From: an uncultured Heliobacteriaceae bacterium
GTDB lineage: Bacteria > Acidobacteriota > Blastocatellia > RBC074
Length of the DNA stretch: 64,000 bases
Direction: 5' to 3'
NCBI GenBank assembly: GCA_964563495.1
Contig: CAZLYK010000003.1
Span: 4,554-68,553 of the forward strand
Shown: in pieces, positions 531-61,774 of the stretch
Layout of the letters: the number at the start of each line of letters is the position of its first letter
Numbering within the stretch: the first letter of the stretch is position 1
Translations under genes and position numbers: made by a program
Notes under the pieces: generated by a model
What the model was told of the DNA's origin: nothing
The model's database searches: none
What the model saw: the letters and a program-made list of their open reading frames with translations, nothing else

Positions 531-628
531 AAATAGACAGGATGACAGCGGTTTTCACGTTTGTCTGACCGCGTCCTCGGGTCAGACAAACGTGAAAACC
601 GCTGTCATCCTGTCCAAATCCTGTCTAT
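531..628. repeat. Palindromic intergenic element E1 (TIR AATAGACAGGAT...ATCCTGTCTATT with a 34-bp perfect core hairpin at 536-612)
   Basis: Left TIR at 531-542, right TIR at 617-628. The perfect stem is gacagcggttttcacgtttgtctgacc / ggtcagacaaacgtgaaaaccgctgtc around a 9-nt loop. The element lies between two cytochrome genes. Confidence 0.8.
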
Positions 629-637
629 TCTGCCTAT

Positions 638-7264: not shown

Positions 7265-7349
7265 AATAGACAGGATGAACAGGATTTTTTCAGGATCGAC
7301 AAGCTGGAGTCCGATCATTCCTGAGAAATTCTGGTTGACCCTGTCTATT
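7265..7349. repeat. Palindromic intergenic element E2
   Basis: The element begins with AATAGACAGGATGAACAGGATTTTTTCAGGAT and ends with a CTGTCTATT terminus. It lies between the heptahaem cytochrome gene and the monohaem cytochrome c paralog. Confidence 0.75.
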
Positions 7350-9988: not shown

Positions 9989-10005
9989 CTTAAGCCTCCT
10001 TTCCT

Positions 10006-12461: not shown

Positions 12462-12509
12462 ATTATTCTTGTTGTTGAATGGTATCATGCGGAATATTTT
12501 GTAAATTCA

Positions 12510-12567: not shown

Positions 12568-12582
12568 ACTGAGAGAGCGAAT

Positions 12583-15249: not shown

Positions 15250-15253
<4 letters not shown>
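14129..15253 (+). CDS. hyaA: [NiFe]-hydrogenase small subunit, membrane-bound group 1, with O2-tolerant-type cysteine pattern
   Basis: The start at MAGSTSTIW follows AAAAGGGGGG. It has a Tat motif SRRDFIHF, the ECTCCSESFIRS and WGSCASNGC motifs (both supernumerary Cys of a [4Fe-3S] proximal cluster), and a C-terminal TM anchor. Confidence 0.9.
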
Positions 15254-16965
<1,712 letters not shown>

Positions 16966-16976
16966 GGAGGCGCACC

Positions 16977-17711: not shown

Positions 17712-18162
17712 GGGTGCATCCGGCGCTCTCATCCTCGGCATCGGCAACGTGCTCATGGGGGATGAGGGCGTCGGGGTCCGGGTCGTCGAGGAGTTGCAAA
17801 AAGCTTCACTGCCCGTCGGGGTGGAATGCCTGGACGGTGGGACGGGCAGTTTTTTGCTGCTCGACCCGATGCAGCGGGTAAAGAAGGTGATCCTGATTGA
17901 CGCGACCGTGGACAGCGAGACGGTGGGGACGGTCCGCCGGCTGGAGCCGCGTTTTTCAAAAGATTACCCGCGCACCCTGACCGCGCACGATATCGGATTG
18001 AAGGATTTGATCGATGCCTTCTACCTGCTCGGCGAAGCGCCGGAGGTAGTTTTGTATGCGATCTCGATTCCGGCGCTCCGGGAAATGAGTCTCGAACTTT
18101 CGCCCGAAGTCAGCGCGGCCGTGCCGCGAATCGCGAAGCTGGTTCGAGCCGAGATTGAATAG
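17677..18162 (+). CDS. hyaD: Hydrogenase maturation endopeptidase
   Basis: The ALILGIGNVLMGDEGVGVRVVE N-terminus and DGGT motif fit the HyaD/HybD family. The start is uncertain: the ATGs at 17677/17680 overlap the hyaC 3' end, and an alternative non-ATG start could lie near 17707. Confidence 0.75.
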   Translation: MMNSNGSCLRNEGASGALILGIGNVLMGDEGVGVRVVEELQKASLPVGVECLDGGTGSFLLLDPMQRVKKVILIDATVDSETVGTVRRLEPRFSKDYPRTLTAHDIGLKDLIDAFYLLGEAPEVVLYAISIPALREMSLELSPEVSAAVPRIAKLVRAEIE

Positions 18163-18169
18163 TAGAAGA

Positions 18170-18511
18170 ATGCACGAAATGTCGATCATTCAGGGCGTGC
18201 TGGAAATTGCCGAAGGCGAGGCGCGTAAACACGGCGCCGCAAGGATCAATGAGATCAAGCTCAGACTCGGTGAATTTTGCGGGGTTGTCCGTGAGGCGCT
18301 GGATTTTGCTTTCGAGGCTTTGAAGCGGGGCACGCTGGCTGCGGATGCCAGGTTGAATATCGAGACGATTGAGCTGGTCGTCGAATGTCCGGATTGTGCT
18401 CTGGTCGAGACCTTGAAAGGCGAAATCAGTTTTATCTGTCCGCGATGCGGTGGGTTATTGAAGATCATCACCGGGCGCGAGATGCAGATCGAATATATTG
18501 ATTTGGATTGA
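18170..18511 (+). CDS. hypA: Hydrogenase nickel-insertion protein HypA
   Basis: The N-terminus MHEMSIIQGVLEIAE fits HypA. It has a CPDC...CPRC zinc site. Confidence 0.85.
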   Translation: MHEMSIIQGVLEIAEGEARKHGAARINEIKLRLGEFCGVVREALDFAFEALKRGTLAADARLNIETIELVVECPDCALVETLKGEISFICPRCGGLLKIITGREMQIEYIDLD

Positions 18512-18525
18512 ATTGAGGTGATTGG

Positions 18526-19197
18526 ATGCATCAGGTTAATCTGGAGACCGATATGCTGGAGATGAATCAACATCTCGCCGAGGAGAACGCGGAGATCTTC
18601 CGGAAGCAGGGCGTTTTCGTCATGAATCTCATGTCGGCGCCGGGCGCGGGAAAGACATCGATCCTCGAACAGACGATTGGTCGGCTTAAGCAAGCTTGCC
18701 GGATCGGTGTGATCGAAGGCGATCTCGTCACGACCATCGATGCCGACCGGATCTCCGTACTCGGTGTACCTGCTTACCAGATAACTACCGGAACCGTCTG
18801 TCACCTGGACGCTCGAATGGTCCACAATGCGCTGCACACTTTTCCGATCAGCGGGTTGGACCTGCTGGTAATCGAGAATGTCGGCAACCTGGTCTGTCCG
18901 GCTGAGTTTAATTTGGGTGAAGATCTGAAAGTCATGGTCTACAGCGTAGTCGAGGGTGCCGAGAAGCCGATGAAGTATCCGGTCATGTTTCACGAAGCGG
19001 AGGCCGTCCTGCTCAATAAAATCGACCTCCTGCCTTATTCGGGCGTCAGCCTGGAAGATCTGCGGCGCAATGTACTCGCGGTCAACCCGCGCGCTCAGAT
19101 CATTCCCGTCTCCTGCCGAACCGGTGAGGGTGTCGATCAGTGGATCGACTGGCTGAAAGGAAGAATAGACAGGGTTAACCGGATTTCACCGGATTAA
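18526..19197 (+). CDS. hypB: Hydrogenase maturation GTPase HypB (short form without His-rich N-terminus)
   Basis: SAPGAGKTS P-loop and ENVGNLVCP motifs. The last 11 codons and the stop are encoded inside repeat element E3. Confidence 0.85.
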   Translation: MHQVNLETDMLEMNQHLAEENAEIFRKQGVFVMNLMSAPGAGKTSILEQTIGRLKQACRIGVIEGDLVTTIDADRISVLGVPAYQITTGTVCHLDARMVHNALHTFPISGLDLLVIENVGNLVCPAEFNLGEDLKVMVYSVVEGAEKPMKYPVMFHEAEAVLLNKIDLLPYSGVSLEDLRRNVLAVNPRAQIIPVSCRTGEGVDQWIDWLKGRIDRVNRISPD

Positions 19198-19263
19198 ACA
19201 GGATCAAAGGCAGCAGAAAAAATCCGGTTCAATCCGGTGAAATCCTGTCGATCCTGTCTATTT
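19164..19263. repeat. Palindromic intergenic element E3 (overlaps the hypB 3' end)
   Basis: AATAGACAGGG ... ATCCTGTCGATCCTGTCTATT with an internal inverted repeat ccggatttcaccggatt / aatccggtgaaatcc. Confidence 0.75.
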
Positions 19264-19311
19264 TTGATGATGAACACGAGTCCTCGATTACAACCCGGTG
19301 AGCGGTTGCGA

Positions 19312-21579: not shown

Positions 21580-21581
21580 AA

Positions 21582-21630
21582 AATAGACAGGATCGACAAG
21601 ATTTCAAAAGAGATTAAACAGGGATAGAAC
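21582..21630. repeat. Truncated (left-half) copy of the palindromic element, E4
   Basis: AATAGACAGGATCGACAAGATTTC with no matching right terminus. It begins 3 nt after the hypF stop. Confidence 0.55.
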
Positions 21631-21654
21631 CTGGCATTGAGGGGAAACAGGAAA

Positions 21655-22782
21655 ATGACCGGAGTTTTGCCAAATCAGCGGCCGATTGACCAGATCGATC
21701 CCGATCATTTGGAGCGGATCAAGGGGCTCAAGCACATGATCGGAAACACGCCACTGCTGGCGATCAATTTTAAGTTCAGAGGCCGGCCGCGCGTCGTCTA
21801 CGCCAAAGCCGAAAATCTCAATCTGACCGGCAGCATCAAGGATCGCATGGCCTATCACATTTTAAAGAGGGGGTATCAGGAAGGCATGATCCGGGAAGGC
21901 GACACGATCGCGGAGGCGACCAGCGGAAACACCGGCATCTCATTCTCGGCGATCGGACGCGCGCTTGGGCACCGGGTGGTGATCTTCATGCCCGACTGGA
22001 TGAGCCAGGAGCGAGTCGCTTTGATTCGCAGCCTGGGGGCGGAGATCGTGCCGGTCAGCCGGGAGGAAGGCGGTTTCCTGGGCAGCATCAGGAAGACCGA
22101 GGCCCTGGCGAGTGGCGAAGATCGCGTCTTCCTGCCCCGCCAATTTTCGAATGAGGCGAACGTCGAGGCCCATGAGCAGACGACCGGCCCCGAGATCTGG
22201 TGGCAGCTCAACCATCTCGGGCTCGCGCCGGATGTCTTTGTCGCCGGGGTCGGCACCGGGGGGACGATCATGGGAGTCGGTCGCTATCTGCGCGACCGGC
22301 GGCCCTCAATCCGCCTGCACCCGGTCGAGCCGGCCGAGTCGCCGACTCTCTCGACCGGCCACAAAGTCGGCCAGCATCGGATTCAGGGCATCTCCGATGA
22401 GTTCATCCCATCTATTGTAGAGCTCGATCAACTCGATCATGTCATCGGCGTCAACGATGGCGACGCGATTCTCATGGCGCAGAATCTGGCGAGCTGTCTG
22501 GGTCTGGCAGTCGGCATCTCCTCCGGGGCCAATTTTATCGCCGCCTTGATCGCGCAGAACGAGCTCGATGAAGATGCCGTCGCCGTCACCGTCTTCCCGG
22601 ACAGCAACAAAAAATATCTGAGCACCGACCTGCTCAGAAGCGAGCCGGTCAGGGATGGCTATCTCTCGCCCGAGATCGAGTTGATCAGTTACCGGTCGTT
22701 CAAACGCGTCTGCAGCACCTGCTACGACCTGGACGACGTGCTGCAGACCTACCTGATCAACCAGCCCAGAGGGGTCAGTTGA
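21655..22782 (+). CDS. Cysteine synthase / cystathionine beta-synthase family PLP-dependent enzyme with a roughly 60-aa C-terminal extension
   Basis: GSIKDR PLP-lysine motif; SGNTG and GxGTGGT glycine-rich loops. The substrate cannot be assigned from sequence. Confidence 0.75.
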
Positions 22783-22804
22783 TCAGGAGAATCGGGATTC
22801 ATCT

Positions 22805-23983
22805 ATGTTTAAAGAAGCAACCGTCAGACAATTGAAGAGAGAGGAATTTCAGCGCGAGCTCGGGCGTTATGGCGGGATCGTTCCCGGACCGCTGGTGATC
22901 TGCATTGGCGGAATTCACGGCAACGAACCGGCCGGCGCGCGGGCGTTGCAAAACGTGCTGGCGGATCTCCAGGCGGCCAGGCCGGCTTTCAACGGTGAGT
23001 TTGTGGCGCTGGCGGGAAATCTGGGGGCGCTCAATCAGGAGACCCGTTATCTGCTTCGCGATCTAAATCGCATGTGGTTACCCGACCAGGTCGAGCGGCT
23101 CAAATCCGAATCGTTGAGCGGTTCCGAAGAAGCCGAATACCTGGAACAGCGAGAATTGCTGGCGGCGATCGAATCGGTGATTGCCGGTCGAACGGGTAAT
23201 CTGATCTTTCTTGATCTGCACACGACATCGTCGGACGGGGCCCCCTTTGCGCTGATCAGCGACACGCTGGTCAACCGGCATCTGGCCATGAGGCTCGGCG
23301 TGCCGATCATCCTTGGCCTGGAAGAGAACATAGAGGGGACGATCCTCAATTACATCAACGAGCTCGGATTTGCGGCGATCGGGTTTGAGGCCGGCCAGCA
23401 CCAGGCGCCGTCGTCGGTCAAACATCACGAAGCCGTGATCTGGCTGGCCCTGGTCGAAGCCGGATGTCTCGCCCCGCAGCGGGCTCCGGAGCCGGCGGCT
23501 TTAAGGTCCGGCTTGAAAAAAGCCGTCAACCGGATCCCCCGGGTCATGGAGGTTCGTTATCGACACGCGATTCAGGAATCCGATCAATTTGTTATGCGGC
23601 CGGGGTTCACCAATTTTCATCCGGTCGAAAAATCGCAACCGCTGGCAAGCGACCATCTGGGCGAGGTGAGGTCCCCGGAGGATGGATTGCTGTTTATGCC
23701 GCTCTACCAGAAATTGGGTGAGGACGGCTTTTTCCTGGTCCGTCAGGTCAACACCTTCTGGCTGAAAGTTTCTGAATACATGCGGCGGCTCAAATTTGAC
23801 CGGGTCGTGCCGTTTTTACCCGGCGTCGATTATCTGCCCGGGCGGCGTGACGCCCTGGTCATCGACACACGGATCGCCCGCTGGTTTGTCATTGAAATTT
23901 GCCATCTGCTCGGTTTCCGCAAACACTCTCAAGTCGAGGGAAGGCTGGTAGTCAGCCGCAGACGGCAATCTCCCGAAGATTAA
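22805..23983 (+). CDS. Succinylglutamate desuccinylase / aspartoacylase family zinc hydrolase (M14-like deacylase)
   Basis: [10 protein letters not shown] zinc-binding motif. AGGAGA RBS. Confidence 0.7.
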
Positions 23984-24005
23984 GGAAACGGAGGCATTCA
24001 TATTT

Positions 24006-25643
24006 ATGTTACCGATACGAAAAATAGCCGATCAGCTCAACCTCTCGGATGACCATCTGGTCTATTACGGTGAGCATACGGCCAAGTTGAAATTGGATCT
24101 GCTGGACGAATCAAGGAAGCCGAATCGCGGGAAGTTGATTATGGTCACGGCGATTACCCCGACCAGCCATGGTGAAGGGAAGACGGTGGTCTCGATTGGG
24201 TTGGCGCAGGCTATCACGCGCTGCGGCAAGACGGCGCTGGCGACGCTGCGCGAGCCTTCACTCGGGCCGGTCTTCGGTTTGAAAGGCGGCGCGACCGGTG
24301 GCGGTAAGGCGCAGGTGCTGCCGGCCGAGAAGATCAATCTGCATTTCACCGGAGATTTTCACGCGATCACGTCGGCTCATAACCTGCTGGCCGCAGTGAT
24401 CGACTCACACTTACACCACGGCAACGAATTACGATTCGATGTCGACAACGTCTTCTGGCCGCGAGCCATGGATATGAACGACCGGGCACTGAGACATATC
24501 ATCGTCGGGCTTGGCGGGAAGATGAACGGAGTGCCGCGCGAGACCGGGTTCGTGATCACCGCCGCTTCGGAGGTCATGGCGATTATGGGCCTGGCCAAAT
24601 CGCGTCATGATTTGCGGCGGCGGCTCGACGAGATAGTGGTCGGTTTCAACCTCGACGGCCAGCCGATACGCGCTCGCGATCTGCACATCACCGGCGCCTT
24701 GATGGTCCTGCTCAATGAGGCGATCATGCCCAACCTGGCGCAGACCACCGAAGGCACACCGGCGCTTGTCCACACCGGCCCGTTTGCCAACATCGCGCAC
24801 GGGACGAGCAGCGTTATCTCCCAGATGATGGCCATGAGGCTCGCCGATTACGTCGTCAACGAATCGGGTTTCGGCGCGGAACTGGGGGCGGAGAAATATT
24901 TCGATATAGTCATGCCGCATTCGGGCCTCAAGCCCTCGGCCGCGGTTCTGATCGCCACCGTCCGCGCGCTGGCTTCGCACGGCTCGACGCCGGATAATCC
25001 CAGCGAGGTGAGTGCCGCAGCGGTGCAGAGGGGGTTGGCCAACCTGGCCAAGCACCTGGAAAACCTCCGCAAATACAAAGTCCCCGTGGTCGTCGCGATC
25101 AATCGCTTCAACACGGATACCGATGATCAGATTGAAGTGATTCGCGGCTTCTGCCGTGAAGCGAGGGTCGAATCGGCAGTCGTAGAGGTCTATAATCAAG
25201 GCGGCGAGGGGGCGATCGAACTGGCTGAAAAGGTCATGGCGATCGCTGAAAAAAGCCGCCCGGAAGAGGTCACGCCGATCTATCATTCGGACATGAGCCT
25301 GGAAGAGAAGATCGGACGGGTAGCCACGGAGATCTACGGCGCCAGCGGCGTTAACATCGAGTCTGAAGCGCGCAAGAAGCTGAAGAAGTTCGCCTCGCTC
25401 GGGTTCGGTCACTATCCGATCTGCATGGCCAAGACCCAGTCGTCTTTGACCGACAATCCGAAGCTGCTCGGCGCTCCATCCGGATGGACACTGACCGTCT
25501 CGGACGCCCATCTTTCGGCCGGGGCCGGCTTCGTCGTCGTCGTCGCCGGATCGATGATGTTGATGCCGGGGCTGCCAAAAGTGCCCCAGGCCGGCAAATT
25601 GGACGTCGACGGGCACGGCGCGATTACCGGGATGAATTACTGA
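24006..25643 (+). CDS. fhs: Formate--tetrahydrofolate ligase (formyl-THF synthetase)
   Basis: PTSHGEGKTVVSIGL P-loop region and overall length typical of FTHFS. Confidence 0.9.
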   Translation: MLPIRKIADQLNLSDDHLVYYGEHTAKLKLDLLDESRKPNRGKLIMVTAITPTSHGEGKTVVSIGLAQAITRCGKTALATLREPSLGPVFGLKGGATGGGKAQVLPAEKINLHFTGDFHAITSAHNLLAAVIDSHLHHGNELRFDVDNVFWPRAMDMNDRALRHIIVGLGGKMNGVPRETGFVITAASEVMAIMGLAKSRHDLRRRLDEIVVGFNLDGQPIRARDLHITGALMVLLNEAIMPNLAQTTEGTPALVHTGPFANIAHGTSSVISQMMAMRLADYVVNESGFGAELGAEKYFDIVMPHSGLKPSAAVLIATVRALASHGSTPDNPSEVSAAAVQRGLANLAKHLENLRKYKVPVVVAINRFNTDTDDQIEVIRGFCREARVESAVVEVYNQGGEGAIELAEKVMAIAEKSRPEEVTPIYHSDMSLEEKIGRVATEIYGASGVNIESEARKKLKKFASLGFGHYPICMAKTQSSLTDNPKLLGAPSGWTLTVSDAHLSAGAGFVVVVAGSMMLMPGLPKVPQAGKLDVDGHGAITGMNY

Positions 25644-25677
25644 CCGATCTGTTTTCGTTATCGTAGGAGCAACTCTT

Positions 25678-25929
25678 ATGTGTCTTGCTGTTCCGGGAAA
25701 CGTCGTCAGCATAGAGGGCGAGGACCTGCTCCGCCACGGTAAGGTAAATTTCGGCGGCATCGTCAAGCACGTCAATTTGAGCTACGTGCCGGAAGCGAAG
25801 ATCGGCGATTACGTGATCGTGCATGTCGGTTTTGCGATCAGTATCGTCGATCAGGCGGAAGCCGAACAGGTCTTCGAATTCCTGCGCTCGCTCGATGAGC
25901 TGTCTGAGCTTGAAGGGGAACCGCGATGA
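25678..25929 (+). CDS. hypC: Hydrogenase maturation chaperone HypC
   Basis: MCLAVPG N-terminus. Confidence 0.85.
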
Positions 25930-27029
25930 AGTTCATCGACGAATACCGCGACGCCGAATCTGCTCAGACCTGCGCCGAAGCCATTGCCGGACTGATCACC
26001 CGGCCCTGGACGCTCATGGAGGTCTGCGGCGGTCAGACGCATTCGATCGTCAAGTTCGGCATCGATGAGCTCCTCCCAGCTGAGTTGACGCTGGTCCACG
26101 GGCCCGGCTGTCCGGTCTGCGTGACCCCTCTCGAGCAGATCGATAAGGCGATCGAGATCGCTTCGCGCCCCGAAGTGATCTTCTGTTCCTTCGGCGACAT
26201 GCTGCGCGTCCCCGGCAGCGAGAAGGATCTCTTCATGGTCAAGGCGGCAGGCGGGGATGTCCGCGTAGTCTATTCGCCGCTCGATTGTTTGAAGATCGCG
26301 CGCGAGAATCCCGGCAGGATCGTCGTCTTTTTCGCGGTCGGGTTCGAGACCACGGCGCCGCCGAATGCGATGGTCGTATATCAGGCGCGCGAGCAGGGGA
26401 TCGACAACTTTTCGATCCTCGTTTCACACGTCCTGGTCCCTCCGGCGATGGAGGCGATCCTCTCTTCGCCGGGCAACCGCGTCCAGGGCTTTCTGGCCGC
26501 CGGCCACGTCTGCACGGTCATGGGCTATACCGAATATGAGCCGATCGCCGATAAGTACCGTGTGCCGATCGTCGTCACCGGGTTCGAGCCGCTCGATATA
26601 TTGCAGGGCGTGCTCATGTGCGTCCGGCAGTTGGAGGAAGGGCGGGCAGAGGTCGAAAACCAGTATGCCCGTTCGGTCAGACGCGAAGGTAACCAGCACG
26701 CCCAGAAGGTGATCAATCAGGTTTTCCGGGTCTCACCCCGCAAATGGAGGGGGATCGGCGAGATCCCGCAAAGCGGCCTGACTTTGAGCGAAGACTATGC
26801 CGAATTCGACGCCGAGCGCAGGTTCGGATTGACCGGTTACACCGCCGATGAGCCGTCCGAATGCATAAGCGGGTTGATCATGCAGGGCGTCAGGAAACCG
26901 CACGAATGCACGGCTTTCGGCTCACGGTGCACACCCGAAAAACCTCTCGGCGCGCCGATGGTCTCGAACGAAGGCGCCTGCGCCGCCTATTACCGATATC
27001 GACGGAACCTGGGAAATAGACAGGATTGA
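25926..27029 (+). CDS. hypD: Hydrogenase maturation protein HypD
   Basis: [13 protein letters not shown] and FEPLD motifs. The last four codons plus the stop (NRQD*) are encoded by repeat element E5. Confidence 0.9.
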
Positions 27030-27090
27030 CAGGATTTGACCAGACCTGATCTTGTTCAGTCCTGCATCGATCCGGTTGATCATGTCTATT
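27015..27090. repeat. Palindromic intergenic element E5
   Basis: AATAGACAGGATTGACAGGATTTGACC ... GATCATGTCTATT (right TIR slightly degenerate). Confidence 0.75.
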
Positions 27091-27109
27091 TTCTCGACGG
27101 GTCTTGATT

Positions 27110-28165
27110 ATGGCCGAAGATCTAGATTTCAACCTTTCGTGTCCGATCCCGATCGGGCAATACCCGCAGGTTTTGCTGGCTCACGGCGGGGGCGGCAAGC
27201 TCATGCATCAGTTGATCGAGCAAATGTTCGTCCCCGCCTTCGGCAATCCGTTGCTCGGCTCGCGCCACGACGGCGCGGTCCTGGAGATGAATGGCGCGAG
27301 ACTGGCATTCACCACCGACTCTTATGTCGTCCGCCCGATCTTCTTTCCCGGCGGCGACATCGGCACGCTGGCGATCAACGGCACGGTCAACGACCTGGCC
27401 ATGTGCGGAGCCCGGCCGCTCTATCTCAGCGCCGGCTTCATCCTGGAAGAAGGATTGCCGATGGAGTCGCTCTGGCGGATCGTGCAATCCATGCAGCGAG
27501 CGGCTGAAGAGGCCGGCGTACAGCTCGTCACCGGCGATACCAAGGTAGTCGATAAGGGCAAGGGAGACGGCATCTTCATCAACACGGCCGGCGTCGGCCT
27601 GATCGATCACGCACAGGTGATCGCGCCTGCGAGCGTCAGGGCCGGCGACGCCGTCCTGCTGAGCGGTGATCTTGGCCGCCACGGCATCTCGATTATGGCC
27701 ACGCGTGAAGGGCTGTCGTTTGAATCCGAGATCGAAAGCGATTGTGCGCCGCTCGCCGATCTGGTGCGCCGGATGATCGAGGCCGGGGTCGAGCTTCACT
27801 GCTTGCGGGATTTGACCAGAGGCGGTCTGGCCAGCGCCCTGGTCGAGATCTCCGAGGTTTCGGGGCTCCAGATCAGGATAGACGAAAACGCTATCCCGGT
27901 CCGTGAAGATGTCCGTGGTGCCTGCGAGATCCTGGGTCTGGACCCGCTTTACCTGGCCAATGAGGGCAGATTCGTTGTCTTTCTTCCGGCCACCCACGCC
28001 GACCGGGCGTTGGCAATCCTGACCGCGCATCCGCTCGGTCAAAACGCCGCGCTCATCGGGCGCGCCGAGCAGGGCTCATCGAATCATGTCCTGATCAGAA
28101 GCTCGATCGGCGCCCTCCGGATCGTCGATATGTTCAGTGGAGAGCAACTGCCGAGAATTTGCTGA
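27110..28165 (+). CDS. hypE: Hydrogenase maturation protein HypE
   Basis: AIR-synthase-like fold. C-terminal PRIC with terminal Cys (the carbamoylation/cyanation site). Confidence 0.9.
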
Positions 28166-29439: not shown

Positions 29440-29613
29440 AGACCGTTCTGCCTGTGAAATCTTCCCATTAAAGCGTGCGGGCGCCCAGGCGTTGGGTGAT
29501 TTTTCGCAACGGTGCCTGGGCGTCATAATTGGAATTTGTTCTATCTGATCGCCTGATAATCTATGGCATCTTTTTTGCGTGATTGACCAAGATGACGAGT
29601 TGGAGTTTGGTTA

Positions 29614-29640
29614 AATCCTGCAAAGATCATGTCTATTCTG
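29614..29640. repeat. Solo right-end fragment of the palindromic element, E6
   Basis: AATCCTGCAAAGATCATGTCTATTCTGCC resembles the right termini of E1 and E5. Confidence 0.5.
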
Positions 29641-32334: not shown

Positions 32335-32709
32335 ATGACTACCCTGAAATATGATACGTTTTTCAATCTGGACGCCCTTTCGCTGATCGCCAAAGGGCTG
32401 AGCCTGATCAGCATTCTGATCCTCGCGCTTTTCTTTATCGGCGAAGGGTTCAATCCATCGAAGATTCAGCTCAATGAATGGATCCTCTTTCTCTTCTTTC
32501 CGTTCGGCCTGATTACCGGGATGGTTGTCGCCTGGTGGAAAGAGGGGCTGGGCGCGATGATCGCGGTCGGCAGCCTGGTCGGATTTTACCTGGCCCATTT
32601 TCTGCAGACCGGAGGGCTGCCGCGCGGATGGGCCTTTCTGGCCTTTGCCGTGCCCGGATTTCTGTTTCTCGTCCATTGGCTGATAACCAGGTTCAATCGA
32701 CAGGATTAA
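32335..32709 (+). CDS. Small four-TM membrane protein of unknown function
   Basis: Start MTTLKYDTFF after AAGGGGGAA. The last 5 codons plus the stop (FNRQD*) are encoded by repeat element E7. Confidence 0.4.
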   Translation: MTTLKYDTFFNLDALSLIAKGLSLISILILALFFIGEGFNPSKIQLNEWILFLFFPFGLITGMVVAWWKEGLGAMIAVGSLVGFYLAHFLQTGGLPRGWAFLAFAVPGFLFLVHWLITRFNRQD

Positions 32710-32777
32710 CAGGATTTCAACAGGATTAAACCGGATGGTTTTCCATCTTGCTTTTGATCCGGTTAACCCTGTCTATT
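32695..32777. repeat. Palindromic intergenic element E7
   Basis: AATCGACAGGATTAACAGGATTTCAACAGGATTAAACCGGAT ... ATCCGGTTAACCCTGTCTATT. Confidence 0.75.
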
Positions 32778-37538: not shown

Positions 37539-37586
37539 CGGTTTTCAGAGTCGTCCGTCCTGTCAGACGCACGACTCTGAAAACCG
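37539..37586. repeat. Solo core hairpin of the element family (type II core), E14
   Basis: cggttttcagagtcgtccgtc CTGTCAGA cgcacgactctgaaaaccg. The loop carries the TGTCAG motif. Confidence 0.55.
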
Positions 37587-38561: not shown

Positions 38562-38629
38562 AATAGACAGGATTGAACCAGATTATTATCCCGTTCAATC
38601 CTGCAGAAATCCTGTCAATCCTGTCTATT
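38562..38629. repeat. Palindromic intergenic element E8
   Basis: AATAGACAGGATTGAACCAGATTATTATCCCGTTCAATCCTGCAGAAATCCTGTCAATCCTGTCTATT. Confidence 0.75.
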
Positions 38630-40501: not shown

Positions 40502-40724
40502 TCGCTGATTGATACTGATGATAGCGACAAACCGGATTGAGAATGTCGTAACGATGTTCTCGAATTGCTCTCGCGCTACACATTGAGGACCGCTCTCTGT
40601 TACGTTTATTGACCGCAACCTCCACGAGACGTCCCTCCTTGACGAATCCCCATGATTCCCTCCACACAATTTCTCAATGTGTAGCCGAGAGTCTGAGCAA
40701 GTTAAAAATACCGTGACAGGTATC

Positions 40725-40768
40725 ACAAAACCACCCTGTAGTGTTGAGCTACAGGGTGGTTTTGTTTT
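40725..40768. terminator. Bidirectional rho-independent terminator
   Basis: aaaaccaccctgtagtgttgagctacagggtggttttgtttt. It lies between convergent genes. Confidence 0.7.
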
Positions 40769-40771
40769 AAC

Positions 40772-41629
40772 TCAATTGCCGCGCTGGAATGGTTTGGATC
40801 TTTTGCGCCAGCCGCGCTGGGCCAGATCGTGAAGATGCTGAGTCGAGTAGCGCTCTCGTTTTTTTCCCTCGTCTTTCTCTCGCAATCCGATGATGCCGAA
40901 AGCGAAGGGGATGATAAAGAAGTGTAGCCTGCCGCCCGCGACCTCGAAAAGATGGGATAAAAGCGTCATGGTGACCTGCACCGGCATCGAGGCCGGGACG
41001 ATTTGCAAACCCGAGTGGAGACCTATGTAACGCGCTCCCATGAGATGCAATGGCTGATAATTCAGAATGGCGAAGAGGAGGAGGCCGGCGTAGAAGTTTG
41101 CCATGGCCGAAAGCGCGTCCTTGCGCCAGGCGATGACCAGCGAAAAGAAGATGATCGTGGTGATGATCAAAATGATCTGGGTGGCGAACATCGGGCGCAC
41201 CGATGAGACGGGGCGCAGCCTCGAGACCGCACCGGCGACGAATGAGAGCAGCAAGACCAGGCCGCAGATGCCGATCAGCGGCAGCCATTGTTTCTGTTTC
41301 GATTTTGACGCGCGCAGATCGGCGAACCAGAACGCGATCATGCCGCAGGCGCCGCCATCGATGACCCCCTGGACTACCGGTCCGACCATTCTGGGCACAG
41401 TCAGTCCGAAGAGCGATAAACTGTATCCGGCTCCGCGCAGCCCGTTGAGCTGCAGCAGATATTCCGCGATCACGGTCAAGAAAGATCCACTGGCAAACAT
41501 GAGCAGAAACCGGTGATCGCGTTTGTAATAGAGGAAATATCCGGCGATGGCCAGACTGACTGCCATCAGGATCAGGCGGGTTTCATAGTAACCCGCCTGA
41601 TCGAAGGTTCTGAGCATCAAAAAATCCAT
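40772..41629 (-). CDS. Multi-pass membrane protein of unknown function
   Basis: The internal start MDFLMLRTF is used. About 8 TM helices. Confidence 0.4.
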   Translation of the reverse strand: MDFLMLRTFDQAGYYETRLILMAVSLAIAGYFLYYKRDHRFLLMFASGSFLTVIAEYLLQLNGLRGAGYSLSLFGLTVPRMVGPVVQGVIDGGACGMIAFWFADLRASKSKQKQWLPLIGICGLVLLLSFVAGAVSRLRPVSSVRPMFATQIILIITTIIFFSLVIAWRKDALSAMANFYAGLLLFAILNYQPLHLMGARYIGLHSGLQIVPASMPVQVTMTLLSHLFEVAGGRLHFFIIPFAFGIIGLREKDEGKKRERYSTQHLHDLAQRGWRKRSKPFQRGN

Positions 41630-45788: not shown

Positions 45789-47192
45789 ATGAGTCGGATA
45801 CTTCATTTAATTGAGAATTTCGTCCTGGCGATCTATTTTTGCGTAATCTGGCTGACGCCGGCCAATTTGCGCAGCGCCTCGCGAATCATGTCCAGTGGGC
45901 GATGGCGGGTGACGACCTGGCTGCGCGAGCGGCGGGATTTTCTGCCGCTGGCTGCGCTCATGCTGACCGTGGCATTGTCGACCCTGGTTTTCGGGCAAAC
46001 GCCCGAGGGTACTGGAATCGCGACTACTTCGACTGCCGCATTGCCGGCCGATCTGATCGAACTACGGCGAGAAGGAAATGCCGCCCTCTATAACATAGAT
46101 TACCCGACGGCCAGGACAAAGTTCGAGGAGATCAGGAAACGGCTGCCCTCTCATCCGGCAGGAGACCTCTATCTGGGAACTCTGATCTGGCTCGAACACC
46201 TCAACAAGAGCCGGCGATTGCAGACCGGTCTATATAGCAATGAATCGAGCTTTTATGCCGGCGCCGACAAGGCCAGTGAGGACAATGAAGGAGACGCGGT
46301 CGACCCGGCTGTCGATAAGGCGTTTCGCGACCGGATGGCTCAGGCTAAAACAAAGGCCCTCGCTCTGGTCAATCGCAACAAGAATGACGCCGACGCGGTC
46401 TACTTTCTCGGCGCCGTCTACGGAGTCATGGCCGGTTACGAGGCGTCCGTCGCGCGTAAATTCTTCGCCGCCATACGAAATGGATCGCGCGGCGTTGACG
46501 CCCACGAAAAAGTGCTCAAATTGAACCCGAATTATTATGACGCCTACCTTTCAGTCGGCATGTACGATTACATCATCGGCAGTCTGCCATTTGCCTACAA
46601 AGCGCTGGCGACGATCGCCGGTTTTCGCGGGAACAAGCAGAGAGGGATCAGCCGGTTGCAGACGATTATCGGGAAAGACGTTGCCACCTCCGATGACGCT
46701 CGGGTCATGCTGCTGGCGATCTATCAAAATGAAAAACGCCATCAGGACGCCCTCGCCATCCTTCAGGAACTGAACGCCAAATACCCGAACAGTTACCTGC
46801 TCAAGCTGGAGACGGCCTCAACCCTGGTCACGCTCAAGCGCAGCGAGGACGCCTATCAGGCATTCGAGAACCTGCTCAAGGACGAGACGACTGCGGCGAT
46901 CGTCGATCTGATTCATTTTCAATACGCCGAGGCGCTCGCTCTGAACCTGGAATTCAAACGCTCGGCCGAGCATTTTCTCGCGGCCTCTCAATCCAAAACG
47001 GCCGATGCGAACCTGGCGACCCTGGCGCTCCTGCGAGCCGCCCAGGTCTATGACCTCGCCGGCAGCCGCGACGCTGCTCTGGCTCAGTATAAAGCCGTCC
47101 TCGCGCGACCCAATGTTTACGATACGCGCGAACAGGCAGAACGTGGATTGAAGGAGCCTTTCCGCCGCAAACAGGAAGAGAAGAAGGGGTGA
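45789..47192 (+). CDS. TPR-repeat protein with N-terminal membrane anchor
   Basis: Repeated helical TPR-like units. Function is unknown. Confidence 0.45.
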   Translation: MSRILHLIENFVLAIYFCVIWLTPANLRSASRIMSSGRWRVTTWLRERRDFLPLAALMLTVALSTLVFGQTPEGTGIATTSTAALPADLIELRREGNAALYNIDYPTARTKFEEIRKRLPSHPAGDLYLGTLIWLEHLNKSRRLQTGLYSNESSFYAGADKASEDNEGDAVDPAVDKAFRDRMAQAKTKALALVNRNKNDADAVYFLGAVYGVMAGYEASVARKFFAAIRNGSRGVDAHEKVLKLNPNYYDAYLSVGMYDYIIGSLPFAYKALATIAGFRGNKQRGISRLQTIIGKDVATSDDARVMLLAIYQNEKRHQDALAILQELNAKYPNSYLLKLETASTLVTLKRSEDAYQAFENLLKDETTAAIVDLIHFQYAEALALNLEFKRSAEHFLAASQSKTADANLATLALLRAAQVYDLAGSRDAALAQYKAVLARPNVYDTREQAERGLKEPFRRKQEEKKG

Positions 47193-47195
47193 AGA

Positions 47196-47329
47196 AATAG
47201 ACAGGATTGACAGGATTTGTGCAGGATTAAACAGGATTATTGGAAAAAGGTGTGGTTGGGATAACCTCTATCATGCCTATATTGATCATCCTGTTTAATC
47301 CTGCACAAATCCTGTCAATCCTGTCTATT
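47196..47329. repeat. Palindromic intergenic element E9 (longest copy; 42-bp perfect TIRs and a 50-bp unique core)
   Basis: AATAGACAGGATTGACAGGATTTGTGCAGGATTAAACAGGAT ... ATCCTGTTTAATCCTGCACAAATCCTGTCAATCCTGTCTATT. The tatC stop codon lies inside the right TIR. Confidence 0.85.
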
Positions 47330-48380
47330 TCTTCGAGCCGGCGAACTCTTCATCGGACTGGCGGGGTTTACCGAAGGCCCAGACGATCCCCACGCTCAGG
47401 AAATAGAGACCGAGCATCGGCGTTGCAAACATCATCATATTGAATGCGTCGGGAGTCGGCGTCAGGACGGCCGAAATGATCGCGATGCTGACGATTGCGA
47501 CCCGCCAGGCCCTGAACATCATGCGCGGGGTCAAGAGCCCGATCCGGCCGAGCACGAAGGCGATCGTCGGGATCTGGAAGACGATGCCGAGGCCGAGCAT
47601 GATCATAATGATCAGGTCCAGGTAGTCCTCGGCGTCGAGCAAAGTCCGAAAACCTCCCTCGACGGCCAGCCCCAACAGATAATCGCAAGCGGCGGGGAAG
47701 GCGATCCGGTATGCGAAACTCGCGCCGAGGGTAAAAAAGACGGTCGACATGACCAACACCGGGACGATGTATTTTTTCTCGTGCTTGTAGAGTCCCGGTG
47801 AGATAAACGCCCAGATCTGGTAGAAGAGGAAGGGGACGGCCAGCGCGATGCCGGCGTAGAGCGCGACTCTCATGTAGATCATGAAAGAACTGGTCACGCC
47901 ACGCAGCACGAGCTGGTTGCTCTCGTCGTCAAAAAAGATCTGTGTTTGTCCTTCCTGGAAGATCTTGCTCAGCGGAGTCTCGGCCGGGACTACGGTTTTA
48001 GCAACCGACCATTGATCGGCGAGGACGAGCATCGGCTTATTGTCCTTGGCCACCTTTTTGACCAGGATCGTCGTCCCGAGCGGGATCTTTACCCCATTGA
48101 CCGCGGTCTCCTGGGTAAAGGTGTACTGGAGTATCTCTCCATCTTTGATCTGGCCGATGTCGACCTGTCCTGACGCCGCTTGCTGCGCGCGCCGGGCTTT
48201 CTGTAATTGCTTGATCACCGGGACTGAAAGGAATTTATAGATCTCTTCTGAAAAAACGAAGCAGAGGGCGAACGCCACGGCAATCGAGACCACCGAATAG
48301 ATCAGCCTGCGACGCAGCTCGTCGAGGTGATCCAGAAACGACATCTGTAATCCTTCTTGCGCTGCTATCTCGTCGCTCAT
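47325..48380 (-). CDS. tatC: Twin-arginine translocase subunit TatC (with a roughly 100-aa insertion in the first periplasmic loop)
   Basis: MSFLDHLDELRRRL N-terminal motif. Six TM helices. Confidence 0.8.
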   Translation of the reverse strand: MSDEIAAQEGLQMSFLDHLDELRRRLIYSVVSIAVAFALCFVFSEEIYKFLSVPVIKQLQKARRAQQAASGQVDIGQIKDGEILQYTFTQETAVNGVKIPLGTTILVKKVAKDNKPMLVLADQWSVAKTVVPAETPLSKIFQEGQTQIFFDDESNQLVLRGVTSSFMIYMRVALYAGIALAVPFLFYQIWAFISPGLYKHEKKYIVPVLVMSTVFFTLGASFAYRIAFPAACDYLLGLAVEGGFRTLLDAEDYLDLIIMIMLGLGIVFQIPTIAFVLGRIGLLTPRMMFRAWRVAIVSIAIISAVLTPTPDAFNMMMFATPMLGLYFLSVGIVWAFGKPRQSDEEFAGSKK

Positions 48381-51938: not shown

Positions 51939-53444
51939 ATGCTTAGCGAATACCGCCAACGTCTCGGCGAATTTCAGACCGCCGTCAATCGGGATGCCTA
52001 TTTGGCCGGCTCGGGCCGTCGGGAGAAGAGAGCGTTTGGCCGTGTCTTGGGCGAATACAGCGATCTTTTTCGACTCTCGGTCGTGGCCGAATTGCGCACC
52101 GGGCTGGCGGAAACCTCCGAAGTTTTTCAGACCGAAAAGGCAGGTATTCGTCGACTGATCGCTTTTGCTCTGGAGGGGAATTTAGCCGCTCGCCTGCACG
52201 AGGTTTCGCTGGAGATCGAAAGTCATCAAGCGATCGCGCTGATCGAATGGGAAGGTCGGAAGATTACGGCGGCGGAGGCGGCCGAGCTGCTCTCGGTTGA
52301 GCCGGAATTGAAGCGTCGCCGGGAGCTTGAGGCGCGTCGCGCAGAGGCGATCAGGGGAGCCGATGACCTGCGCGCAGCTAGATTTGACAGGCTCCACATT
52401 GCCGCGGTCGATCTGGGTTATCGGAATTACCTGGACATGCTCGTGACTGAGCGAGGGATCGATGCCGAGAAGATGGTTTCGTCCGCCAATCGTTTTCTCG
52501 CATCGACTGAGAACCGGTTTGTCGTCGCGCTTTCGCCGTTGCTCACTCGCCAGGCGCAGATCTCTCTCGATGAAGCGAACCAAACCGACCTCGATTATTT
52601 ACGAGCTTTTTCCGGATATGACCACTACTTTTCGCCTGAGCGGATGCTTGAGGTCTACCGCGAGCTCTTCTCAGGACTCGGTTTCAAGACCGAGGTGCAG
52701 ACAAACCTGACGATTGAACCTGGTTCTGGATCTCGAAAAGTCGGCGGGGCAGCCTGTTATCCGGTGGTCATCCCGGAAGAGATCAGGCTGGTCGTCAATC
52801 TGACCGGCGGGCAGGCCAACTATCGCCGGCTCTGTCGAGTAGCCGGAACCGCCCAAAATTTTGCCTGGACCTCGCGCCATTTGCATCCCGAATTCCGATT
52901 TCCCATTGCCTGGAGCGACTCGGCCGCCAGGATATCCTGGGGACTGCTGCTGGAGAGCCTGTTTCTGGATCGGAGCTGGCTGCTCGGGACGCTGGGTTTG
53001 AGAGAGAGTGAGGAGTTCCGTCGAACGCTGGCGATCCTGCGGTTGACGCAGGTACGCCGGCTTGCCGCGAGGCTCAATTACGAGGTGGAATATCACTCCG
53101 GCGCGCTGGTGGGCAGAGCAGGGGAGCGTTATGTCAAGCTCTTAAATGAGGCTTTACACGTCACGGTTGAACAGACGGAGTACCTGAGCGGGCTCTCTGA
53201 TTCATTATCCGCCGGTGATTATTTTCGCGCCTACGCCTTCGAGTCACAGCTGCGTGAATACCTCATGACCAAATTCGGCTCTCGCTGGTGGGTCTCGCGT
53301 AAGGCCGGCGAGATGTTGATCGATCTCTGGAATACGGGACAGAGATACACTGTCGAAGAAATGGCCGATCTGATCGGTCTCGGAGGACTCGATTATGACT
53401 GGCTGGCGCGTGGTCTGGTCAGCCATCCGTTGGTTGAATCATGA
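51939..53444 (+). CDS. Hypothetical protein (about 500 aa), translationally coupled to aroB
   Basis: No metalloprotease HExxH motif. The stop overlaps the aroB start (ATGA). Confidence 0.45.
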   Translation: MLSEYRQRLGEFQTAVNRDAYLAGSGRREKRAFGRVLGEYSDLFRLSVVAELRTGLAETSEVFQTEKAGIRRLIAFALEGNLAARLHEVSLEIESHQAIALIEWEGRKITAAEAAELLSVEPELKRRRELEARRAEAIRGADDLRAARFDRLHIAAVDLGYRNYLDMLVTERGIDAEKMVSSANRFLASTENRFVVALSPLLTRQAQISLDEANQTDLDYLRAFSGYDHYFSPERMLEVYRELFSGLGFKTEVQTNLTIEPGSGSRKVGGAACYPVVIPEEIRLVVNLTGGQANYRRLCRVAGTAQNFAWTSRHLHPEFRFPIAWSDSAARISWGLLLESLFLDRSWLLGTLGLRESEEFRRTLAILRLTQVRRLAARLNYEVEYHSGALVGRAGERYVKLLNEALHVTVEQTEYLSGLSDSLSAGDYFRAYAFESQLREYLMTKFGSRWWVSRKAGEMLIDLWNTGQRYTVEEMADLIGLGGLDYDWLARGLVSHPLVES

Positions 53445-54559
53445 GCCCAATAAACGACAAATCGTTGCGGACAGTTCGGGTTGAACTGGGAGAGCGCAGC
53501 TATCGGATTGCAATTGGAGACGGATTGCTGTCTGCCGCCGGCGAGATCGCCCGCGACGCACTCGGTCCGAAAGCCAGGCGCGTGGCGATCATCACCAATT
53601 CCCTGGTCGCTCGGCATTTCGGCAAGAGAGTCGAGAGGAGTCTACGCCAGGCCGGATTGGCGACGCTGACGCACCTGATCGGCGACGGTGAGCGGGCAAA
53701 ATCGCTGCGCACCGCAGAGCGTGCCTGGGCATTCCTGATTGCCAACCGGCTTGAACGCGCCGATGGAATTGTCGCGCTTGGCGGCGGAGTGGTTGGGGAT
53801 CTGGCGGGTTTTGTCGCTGCGACATTTCTGCGCGGCGTGAATTACGTCCAGATACCGACGACGCTGCTCGCGCAGATCGACAGCTCGGTCGGGGGCAAGA
53901 CGGCGGTCAATCATCCTCTCGGCAAGAATTTGATCGGCGCTTTTCATCAACCTCGGGGGGTCATCATCGACCCCGCCGTCTTGAGGACTCTGCCGGTGCG
54001 AGAGCTGCGCGCCGGCCTCTATGAGGCAGTCAAATACGGGATCATTCGCGACCGGGCGCTGGCCGCTTTTATCCAAAACAATCTGGTCAGGATCGAGGCG
54101 CTCGATTCAGAATCCCTCAGTCATCTGATCGCTCGCTGTTGCCGGATCAAAGCCGAGGTCGTCGCCGCGGATGAACGCGAATCCGGTCTGAGACGGATAC
54201 TGAACTTCGGCCATACGGTCGGCCACGCGCTCGAAGCGGTAACCTCATACCGCCGGTTGAAGCACGGAGAAGCGGTCGGCTATGGGATCAAGTGCGCTTC
54301 GGCAATTGCAGAAAAAGTTGGTATAATCTCCGGCGCTGATGCCCACGCGATAAAACAAAGCGTTGAGGCTTTGGGCAAACTCCCCCGGATCGGCGATCTG
54401 AAACCCCAAGACGTCATCGCCGCGATGGCGCATGACAAGAAGATTGCCCAAGGAAAACTCCCCCTTATTTTACCTACTCGAATCGGCGAGGTGGTTGTGC
54501 GTCACGATATCGCGCCGGCTGTGATCCGGGCAGCGGTCCGCGAATTGCTTTTTGATTGA
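53441..54559 (+). CDS. aroB: 3-dehydroquinate synthase
   Basis: GGGVVGDLAGF and IPTTLLAQIDSSVGGKTAVN motifs. Confidence 0.85.
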   Translation: MSPINDKSLRTVRVELGERSYRIAIGDGLLSAAGEIARDALGPKARRVAIITNSLVARHFGKRVERSLRQAGLATLTHLIGDGERAKSLRTAERAWAFLIANRLERADGIVALGGGVVGDLAGFVAATFLRGVNYVQIPTTLLAQIDSSVGGKTAVNHPLGKNLIGAFHQPRGVIIDPAVLRTLPVRELRAGLYEAVKYGIIRDRALAAFIQNNLVRIEALDSESLSHLIARCCRIKAEVVAADERESGLRRILNFGHTVGHALEAVTSYRRLKHGEAVGYGIKCASAIAEKVGIISGADAHAIKQSVEALGKLPRIGDLKPQDVIAAMAHDKKIAQGKLPLILPTRIGEVVVRHDIAPAVIRAAVRELLFD

Positions 54560-54564
54560 GAAGA

Positions 54565-54658
54565 AAATAGACAGGATTAACAGGATTTTCACAGGATTAA
54601 ACAAGATCAAAGACAAACCAAAGAAGCATCCTGTGAAAATCCTGTTAATCCTGTCTAT
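54565..54658. repeat. Palindromic intergenic element E10 (32-bp perfect TIRs)
   Basis: AATAGACAGGATTAACAGGATTTTCACAGGAT ... ATCCTGTGAAAATCCTGTTAATCCTGTCTATT. Confidence 0.85.
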
Positions 54659-54682
54659 TTTCTCCTTTCCCGAGGAGAAGTT

Positions 54683-55623: not shown

Positions 55624-55643
55624 TCAAATCATCGGACAGAATT

Positions 55644-55707
55644 GGACAGGGAGTAAAAAAAGACGGAGCAAGATTTTCTTGCTCCGTCTTTTTTTACTCC
55701 CTGTCCA
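55644..55707. terminator. Bidirectional rho-independent terminator
   Basis: Perfect hairpin ggacagggagtaaaaaaagacggagcaag attttctt gctccgtctttttttactccctgtcc between convergent genes. Confidence 0.75.
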
Positions 55708-55714
55708 TTCATGG

Positions 55715-58981: not shown

Positions 58982-59095
58982 ATTCGACTGAAATCGAATG
59001 GGTTACAGCGGTTTTTCAGTTTCGTGCGTCTGACAGGACGCACGAAACTGAAAAACCGCTGTAACCCTGCAAACGTCCCGTTAATTCTGTCTATT
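58982..59095. repeat. Palindromic intergenic element E12 (type II core hairpin plus right TIR)
   Basis: 28-bp stem ggttacagcggtttttcagtttcgtgcg / cgcacgaaactgaaaaaccgctgtaacc with loop TGACAGGA, then AATTCTGTCTATT. Confidence 0.7.
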
Positions 59096-59743: not shown

Positions 59744-59781
59744 TCTTTATTTTCACTGGAATCAGCGGATCAAAGAAGAGA

Positions 59782-59842
59782 AAAGACAGGATTAACCGGA
59801 TTTCGACAGGATTAAACAGGATCGCTGTCATCCTCTCTATTT
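59782..59842. repeat. Palindromic intergenic element E11 (variant TIRs)
   Basis: AAAGACAGGATTAACCGGATTTCGACAGGATTAAACAGGATCGCTGTCATCCTCTCTATT. Confidence 0.6.
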
Positions 59843-61686: not shown

Positions 61687-61774
61687 AATAGACAAGATTA
61701 TAGCAAGTTTCACGTTTGTGCGACCACGTCCTCGCGGTCGCACAAACGTGAAACTTGCTATAATCCTGTCTATT
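61687..61774. repeat. Palindromic intergenic element E13 (type I core hairpin, sister of E1)
   Basis: AATAGACAAGAT ... ATCCTGTCTATT with stem agcaagtttcacgtttgtgcgacc / ggtcgcacaaacgtgaaacttgct and loop ACGTCCTCG. Confidence 0.8.

Follow-up and report, generated by a model that had tools for sequence, protein, structure and literature searches.

Genes and palindromes at the locus

The window, by which we mean the whole 64-kb stretch of DNA analyzed here, is an ordinary piece of chromosome. It carries dense multihaem c-type cytochromes and a cytochrome bc-type complex, then a NiFe hydrogenase with hypF/C/D/E (1098-12071 and 14072-28165), and encodes FTHFS, an RND pump, tatA/tatC, aroB, deoxyhypusine synthase and arginine decarboxylase as well. 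Two palindromes, E9 and E10, lie in the spacers next to tatC and aroB, respectively:

45789..47192, + strand: gene of a TPR-repeat protein, convergent with tatC
47191..47237: E9 left arm, GAAGAAATAG followed by four units, GACAGGATT, GACAGGATTT, GTGCAGGATTA and AACAGGAT
47238..47287: E9 centre, 50 nt, unique in the window and in all compared loci, without a GxxExxY gene remnant
47288..47334: E9 right arm, perfect complement of the left arm
47325..48380, - strand: tatC (PF00902), whose stop codon is the TAG of the element terminus AATAG
53441..54559, + strand: aroB (3-dehydroquinate synthase), upstream of E10
54562..54597: E10 left arm, perfect over 36 nt; the unit after it, TAAACAAGAT, is the fourth and has no partner
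54598..54627: E10 centre, 30 nt, unique
54628..54663: E10 right arm, with the ATG of the following ORF (54683) 20 nt downstream

The original prediction gave E9 two 42-nt arms with zero mismatches (47196-47237 and 47288-47329) around a 50-nt centre, and this is exactly what we found. The full perfect palindrome is longer, with 47 nt per arm (47191-47237 and 47288-47334) and 144 nt in total, and outside AATAG it reaches further into GAAGA/TCTTC. E9 makes up every base between the TGA of the TPR gene and the TAG of tatC: the first 2 nt of its left arm are shared with the TGA stop of the TPR gene, which lies upstream, and its right arm includes the tatC TAG stop together with the final two tatC codons on the minus strand. 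Tandem Repeats Finder independently called 4.0 copies of GACAGGATT in E9. For E10, the predicted 32-nt perfect arms and 30-nt centre were correct, whereas the coordinates were one base off (54566-54659 rather than 54565-54658); the perfect run amounts to 36 nt per arm (54562-54597 and 54628-54663).

As RNA, E9 folds with -98.6 kcal/mol (z = -17.8 against dinucleotide shuffles) and E10 with -58.6 kcal/mol (z = -12.8). Roughly 1e-18 perfect inverted repeats of 42 nt would be expected by chance (~64,000 x 300 x 4^-42), and a chance origin of the two palindromes is excluded. A Logan contig identical to the window breaks off 30 nt into E9, which a multi-copy repeat would lead one to expect.

A simple terminator scan gave no match at E9 or E10. 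Compared with the short GC-rich stem, 3-8-nt loop and U tract of an intrinsic (rho-independent) terminator, the stems are 36-47 bp long and AT-rich, the loops measure 30-50 nt and the tail is merely U-rich (UAUUUCUU), and we rejected this identity for both elements. The idea that the centres could carry a promoter found one weak promoter-like match (9/12) in E9 and none in E10. Searching the window against Rfam at the gathering threshold returned no match, and the sub-threshold matches were only to generic long hairpins (miRNA precursors). By inspection and general knowledge, the DnaA box, parS, the Pho box, the LexA box, restriction sites and integron attC were also rejected for misfits of sequence or arrangement.

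A family of inverted tandem arrays in the window

E9 and E10 share their design with a family whose arm is a tandem array of 9-11-nt units with the core ACAGGAT and whose terminus, AAT(A/G)GACAGGAT, stands at both element ends. Over all loci, the core-to-core spacing was 9 nt in 277 of 337 intervals (82%). The terminal 12-mer AATAGACAGGAT, with at most two mismatches, occurred 37 times in the window against 3.1 expected. We counted about 14 copies or fragments in the window, namely two intact elements (E9 and E10), six decayed copies, two solo arms and four composites:

532..629: composite in which a different, perfect 35-nt hairpin sits between family termini
7265..7349: full copy, decayed, with 81% complementarity between its arms
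19164..19262: full copy, decayed, with 4+4 units and 84% complementarity between its arms, upstream of hypF
21582..21625: half copy consisting of a left arm alone, between hypF and the gene after it
27015..27090: copy in the hypD-hypE spacer, decayed, with its initial 26 nt equal to the E9 arm
29600..29637: solo right arm (half copy)
32695..32777: decayed copy, left arm of four units, right arm eroded
38562..38629: copy of the E9 subtype, right arm 93% identical to the E9 arm, left arm truncated
55636..55710: hairpin (55643-55707) with the termini TGGACAGG...CCTGTCCA and an unrelated 31-nt perfect interior
59000..59095: composite, second-family hairpin, then a decayed family terminus
59781..59841: copy whose left arm is intact (four units) and whose right arm is truncated
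61687..61774: composite in which a second-family hairpin (48-nt arms, 94%) lies between family termini

The gradient from perfect to decayed copies that had been proposed was evident. Exact CAGGAT cores numbered 8 of 8 in E9, six in E10 and 0-4 in the rest, in which the arms are 81-84% complementary or only one arm is left. All window copies are intergenic and fit tightly into the spacers of housekeeping operons; family copies lie mostly between co-directional genes, the hyp cluster included, which the repeat family breaks at three spacers. The terminal TAG served as the in-frame stop of an incoming long ORF in 36 of 74 cases over all loci, compared with ~25 under uniform frames. The density in the window is ~1 per 5 kb, which would extrapolate to roughly a thousand per 5-Mb genome. 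Among the 56 window ORFs scanned, we found no transposase, RAYT, integrase or GxxExxY gene, nor was any GxxExxY remnant found in the 64 kb.

The window also holds a second hairpin family (536-614, 59000-59067, 61693-61768 and 37539-37586) with the arm core CGGTTTTCACGTTTGTSYGAC, whose perfect stems measure 31-35 nt and whose loops measure 4-9 nt. Three of its members sit nested within ACAGGAT-family termini and one is free-standing; this family was absent from every other compared locus. Other long, mostly perfect intergenic hairpins of unrelated sequence lie at 12507-12572, 12385-12469, 7774-7818 and 40718-40772. With unrelated perfect hairpins of 30-35 nt present as well, something in the source genome may favour perfect palindromes generally.

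Distribution across phyla

The exact motif AATAGACAGGATNNACAGGAT (19 specified bases), scanned in one genome per species, matched at least 102 loci in at least ~65 genomes of about nine phyla. Judging from record titles, the carriers among the matches listed include Acidobacteriota, Chloroflexota, Verrucomicrobiota, Bacteroidota, Chthonomonadaceae, Desulfohalobiaceae and Candidatus Sumerlaeota, Beta- and Gammaproteobacteria (with the isolate Thiobaca trueperi DSM 13587), Planctomycetota (with the complete genome CP050848.1) and MAGs labelled Firmicutes or Actinobacteria in their records. Nearly all of the listed matches are short palindromes with centres of 8-60 nt. The number of units per array ranges from 2 to 13, and solo arms are common.

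Only two matches were found in 2.9 million viral contigs, so phages are not the main carriers. On plasmids, there were one element match (a Thiodictyon plasmid) and eight GxxExxY matches, and these low numbers indicate that the family is mainly chromosomal. One ACAGGAT palindrome (L025:115-190; L-numbers label the compared loci, ~1.2 Mb in all) lies on a contig assigned, as recorded, to the archaeon Candidatus Methanoperedens sp. BLZ2.

Association with a gene for a GxxExxY protein

A few elements have long centres, and at L067 and L081 the centre is the gene of a GxxExxY protein (TIGR04256, PF13366); remnants of such a gene lie within the elements L101 and L062. In the ~1.2 Mb of compared loci, GxxExxY genes were the sole recurrent genes enclosed by arms, and no transposase was enclosed by these termini. 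For the reverse test, 80 metagenome loci with 77 genes were picked by protein, regardless of DNA motifs. At least three units lay within 160 nt of the gene for 69 of the 77 GxxExxY genes, compared with 3 of 89 control windows located 570-900 nt away. The position of the gene relative to the arms varies: it can be within the loop, follow a complete hairpin or stand between hairpins.

More distant GxxExxY proteins showed the same layout with other units (CACGGAT, CACAGAT and CGCAGAT), and unit class tracked protein clade: the nearest-neighbour concordance was 0.754, whereas 2000 permutations averaged 0.563 and did not exceed 0.739. This co-variation could reflect linkage or common descent instead of recognition. 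GxxExxY genes and elements occurred together in the genomes of L067, L189 and L192. L189, from Blastocatellia, has TGGACAGGATTTACATGATTTTCAGGAT, a ribosome-binding site, the GxxExxY gene and ATCCTGAAAATCCTGTCAATCCTGTCCA in succession between yceI and an aldehyde dehydrogenase gene, and the gene-bearing L192 shares a 5.17-Mb chromosome with the gene-less L003, L016, L064 and L082. On a plasmid of the cultured Fusobacteria bacterium ZRK30 (L191), an annotated GxxExxY gene is accompanied by variant units.

The GxxExxY protein has ~125 aa and matches the profiles TIGR04256 and PF13366. Its AlphaFold2 model (mean pLDDT 82) matched lambda exonuclease, Cas4 SSO0001 and archaeal Hjc resolvases in structure, all with PD-(D/E)XK folds, and the E of GxxExxY, the D and the ExK are kept in 76-77 of the 77 sequences. 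According to the model, the protein is thus predicted to have a PD-(D/E)XK nuclease fold with an intact E...D...ExK site. A sequence search of the PDB with this protein gave no match. The family is very abundant, and 7995 of 8000 scored candidates matched. In a 2012 survey of the PD-(D/E)XK superfamily, the function of GxxExxY/PDDEXK_3 was given as 'Unknown', and multiple transfers between divisions were noted (PMC3424549).

E9, with its 50-nt centre, and E10, with its 30-nt centre, have no GxxExxY gene in the loop, and the E9 centre gave no HMM match to a decayed GxxExxY gene even at E = 1 with filters off. Because their centres lack an HMM match, the two elements would be gene-less derivatives; the association at 69 of 77 genes and the tracking of clade by unit suggest that they are gene-less members of a nuclease-associated family.

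Two further genes were seen near such arrays. A 44-46-aa ORF (MKITQDVREYAA...GAEIYQ) lies on both sides of the cassette in the soil contigs L106, L108, L118 and L120; its TAG stop is the TAG of TAGACAGGAT, and it had no Pfam match. At L189:11991-12563, a 23S_rRNA_IVP gene (PF05635, four-helix-bundle) is placed between inverted GAGATTK arms (11991-12035 and 12311-12350), 1.6 kb from the GxxExxY cassette, and its called ORF runs through the right arm. The presence of a PF05635 gene within inverted GAGATTK arrays hints that the design is more general.

Orthologous sites and the age of E9 and E10

By its TatC, the window belongs to the class Blastocatellia of the Acidobacteriota. The nearest other TatC is 81% identical (L002), and the tatC/TPR spacer at that locus has a GC-rich terminator-like hairpin without a family element. 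A 14-kb stretch syntenic with the window was found in L185, a Blastocatellales MAG with a TatC of 76% identity. There, the site of E10 is an empty 44-nt spacer, the site of E9 holds a palindrome of the same design built from a different unit, TAGGCAGTA, and the spacer orthologous to the hairpin at 55636..55710 carries a canonical ACAGGAT element. The presence/absence differences anticipated among relatives were therefore observed, with the E10 site empty in L185 and the E9 site bearing other hairpins in L185 and L002, in relatives at 76-81% protein identity, a distance at which insertion boundaries and timing are unreadable. Identical occupancy everywhere, which had been named beforehand as speaking against mobility, was therefore not observed.

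In other genomes, whole elements recur. L064 and L089 are 95% identical over 97 nt, centre included, in two genomes with non-homologous flanks, and related centres are shared by several copies in OY969111.1 and in genomes of the Muproteobacteria type. For E9 and E10, none of the data compared contained another copy of either centre, so that neither their description as master copies nor copy-and-paste of E9 and E10 themselves is supported. Target-site duplications, which the original prediction had recommended looking for, never rose above permuted pairing in 76 elements (k = 2-6, offsets 0-5). Of the proposal that mobilization is recent or ongoing, the dispersed and decaying family, the perfect arms and the site differences were upheld, whereas target-site duplications, a transposase and shared E9/E10 centres were not found. 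The build of the arms from one tandemly repeated unit and the tie to a nuclease gene of many phyla go beyond that proposal. Separately, same-design palindromes with other units (L008:2730-2841 and L008:6560-6640) are missing from L032, the genomes of L008 and L032 being 92% identical.

No other stem in a set of 91 elements is perfect over so great a length as that of E9, and E10 shares second place with L088; in the folding test of 72 elements, E9 came first and E10 fourth. The elements ranked (72-91) come from more than 60 genomes. Across the family, own arms folded with -36.4 kcal/mol compared with -34.4 kcal/mol for chimeric arms from different genomes (p = 0.06), and ungapped arm identity was 0.67 within elements versus 0.63 between them; we therefore rejected general compensatory maintenance of the arms. 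In the orthologous elements of L008 and L032, the left arm is identical and the right arm has ~8 uncompensated changes. The family is thus dispersed without target-site duplication and without general maintenance of its arms. Because pairing is not generally maintained in the family, youth is the simplest and best reading of the perfection of E9 and E10, better than selection, and we infer that both are recent insertions.

A putative mechanism of spread and its alternatives

What the data show is a family with this anatomy, spread across phyla, linked to GxxExxY genes and present or absent at orthologous sites. After weighing the data, we consider it probable, with some reserve, that the family is a dispersed selfish palindromic element, with E9 and E10 as young copies that lack a gene and with the GxxExxY gene as part of its full form. 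In other genomes, other Blastocatellia among them, this full form has the gene in or beside the loop, and the unit arrays may be the cognate recognition sites of the GxxExxY nuclease. Supplied in trans by copies at other sites of the genome, the nuclease would spread gene-bearing and gene-less palindromes alike into intergenic spacers beside stop codons, without target duplication, by a route that might be cut-and-repair (homing-like) or directed by the hairpin or cruciform. An inserted copy would be co-transcribed with its neighbours into a very long RNA hairpin, with a presumed role at the RNA level; the E9 hairpin is possibly all that resembles a terminator between tatC and the TPR gene, which converge. 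After insertion, copies would decay via uncompensated mutation and internal deletion. Several points count against this overall reading: the 64-kb window contains no GxxExxY gene, remnant or transposase, the E9 and E10 centres are unique, unit and protein could co-vary by linkage and common descent, the window has unrelated perfect hairpins as well, and the place of the gene relative to the arms is variable. That the GxxExxY nuclease is the actual driver of the spread is a tentative proposal, about which we are more doubtful than convinced.

Some features would also fit structures that the host selects, such as a bidirectional terminator, an mRNA stabilizer or a protein-binding array, in which case selection and not youth keeps E9 and E10 perfect. 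E9 takes up the whole spacer between convergent genes, the same place in relatives has a GC-rich terminator-like hairpin (L002) or another palindrome (L185), each of the two arms leads into a U-rich tail, the folded RNAs are very stable, and there are other perfect hairpins in the window. However, own arms fold no better than chimeric ones (-36.4 vs -34.4 kcal/mol, p = 0.06), one arm has decayed without compensation in the orthologous L008 and L032, the terminator scan was empty at E9 and E10, and most copies sit within operons, as from hypF to hypE, where a strong terminator would be harmful. Such a local function, which we think unlikely, would also leave the multi-phylum ACAGGAT unit and the link to a nuclease gene unexplained. 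An origin in situ, with slippage expanding the units and template switching or fold-back synthesis inverting the copy locally, would give palindromes that are born perfect without any transposition. The recurrence elsewhere of whole elements with their centres at unrelated loci, even in two genomes at 95% identity, argues against it, and the conserved AAT[A/G]GACAGGAT at both ends and the precise placement at stop codons look like the insertion of a defined unit. We hold this origin to be quite unlikely, even though it would account for unique centres made of local sequence, for the common solo arms, for unit numbers from 2 to 13 and the satellite arrays of L036 and L054, and for the same architecture in palindromes with quite different units.

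Two kinds of known mobile repeats offer further explanations. A classical MITE, the deletion derivative of an IS moved in trans by a DDE transposase via its terminal inverted repeats, would likewise be small, intergenic, without an ORF and present in many copies. We consider it very unlikely here, for 76 elements gave no 2-6-nt target-site duplication at six boundary offsets, the 56 window ORFs include no transposase, and no element with the termini AATAGACAGGAT...ATCCTGTCTATT encloses a transposase in the ~1.2 Mb of compared loci; membership in this class fails on the missing target duplication and parental IS. REP/REPIN elements mobilized by a RAYT, an HUH tyrosine transposase, would explain a spaced intergenic doublet without target duplication and a dedicated small gene flanked by repeats (PMC3116915, PMC3337134). 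The gene flanked here, however, is PF13366 (PD-(D/E)XK) and not Y1_Tnp, each arm is a direct-repeat array with a period of 9-10 and not a small REP hairpin, and the window has no RAYT/Y1_Tnp. Moreover, the sequence is common to many phyla, unlike the lineage-specific REPs, which are mostly vertically inherited according to a preprint (bioRxiv 10.1101/2022.05.22.493013). With the defining RAYT and REP hairpins both missing, membership in the REPIN-RAYT system is excluded, and this is the explanation to which we give the least credence.

Comparison with known repeat systems

Our preferred reading, that of a selfish palindromic element with a GxxExxY gene in its full form, invites comparison with several known systems. 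Bacterial MITEs such as Correia elements, ERIC and RUP are intergenic sequences of 60-150 nt with inverted termini that are co-transcribed as long RNA hairpins. The family of E9 and E10 resembles them in size, inverted termini, intergenic site and co-transcribed hairpin but has no target-site duplication and no parental transposase IS, and its centres differ between copies in the source genome. The intervening sequences of 23S rRNA are hairpin-bounded insertions in rRNA helices that are excised by RNase III and are associated with PF05635 genes for four-helix-bundle 'IVS proteins'. Both kinds of sequence are hairpin-bounded and may or may not have a small ORF in the loop; in contrast, E9 and E10 lie between protein genes rather than in rRNA helices, and both the unit and the associated gene differ. 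The cyanobacterial STRR heptamer repeats, reportedly described by Mazel and colleagues in 1990, are said to form intergenic tandem arrays, sometimes in both orientations. These are likewise intergenic arrays of very short tandem units, although the unit has 7 nt instead of 9-10 nt, and sequence and host phyla differ. To our knowledge, STRR have not been described as having inverted arms or as being linked to a nuclease gene.

The closest known system by analogy appears to be REPIN-RAYT, which follows the same logic with a different enzyme fold, arm design and phylogenetic behaviour. Both consist of short palindromic doublets, non-coding and interrupted by a spacer, that occupy tens to hundreds of intergenic sites (Bertels & Rainey 2011, PMC3116915; PMC3337134) without target-site duplication, together with a small enzyme gene that is flanked by these repeats, inverted, and outnumbered by the non-coding copies. 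The enzyme is PD-(D/E)XK (GxxExxY, PF13366) here and HUH/Y1 there, and the arms are tandem arrays of 9-nt units here and single REP hairpins there. The unit described here occurs in many phyla, and its gene is multi-copy and bears marks of horizontal transfer; RAYTs, by contrast, are as a rule single-copy genes with vertical inheritance. In the literature searched, which comprised what is searchable outside subscription journals and database annotations, we found no description of a link between GxxExxY/PF13366 and repeats. This points to an association without an earlier description in that literature, of which prior knowledge is possible.

Should GxxExxY proteins be the engines of a new class of selfish elements, with a minimal nuclease gene, inverted arrays of its own 7-nt motif, moves between phyla and gene-less seeding, which is an idea that we entertain rather than endorse, they would constitute a nuclease-based counterpart of REPIN-RAYT and thus a second, chemically different system of enzyme plus palindrome. 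It would also provide a first functional context for GxxExxY/PDDEXK_3 and explain why assemblies break at such repeats in soil Acidobacteriota, Chloroflexota and other phyla, as the Logan contig does at E9. The same architecture may underlie the four-helix-bundle 'IVS protein' cassettes and other tandem-unit palindromes. The pair of protein and 7-nt motif would be testable in cultured strains, Thiobaca trueperi DSM 13587 with the element and the Fusobacteria bacterium ZRK30 plasmid with the variant cassette.

Related repeat structures in the compared loci

Palindromes of the same design, with inverted arms of tandem 7-9-nt units, occur with other units at L185:11054-11235, L185:4578-4870, L185:8278-8310 and L189:18047-18255. 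The units of such palindromes in L185, L189 and L008 are TAGGCAGTA, GTTTCCAG, AGTAGAAAG, GAAGAGGT, CGCAAAGA and GCAAG, and the inverted tandem-unit architecture seems to be more general than the ACAGGAT family.

Satellite arrays were seen at two loci. In L036:1-850 (Lewinellaceae), a 49-bp repeat made of half an arm occurs at least 17 times in tandem, and L054:5270-5384, at a contig end of a Gammaproteobacteria MAG, consists of (ACAGGATTC) x 13. At L046:1553-1659 and L093:513-619, both from one Chloroflexota MAG, the repeated unit exceeds the ACAGGAT palindrome: the copies also share flanking stretches of ~26 nt (left) and ~17 nt (right), which are themselves inverted (TTATCGG...CCGATAA), and this suggests nesting inside another palindromic repeat. 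Finally, compared with L008, the reverse strand of L032 has an insertion at ~6346-6420, in an apparent coding region, that consists of a GC-rich hairpin of 74 nt (CCGTTCCTCCC...GGGAGGAACGG).
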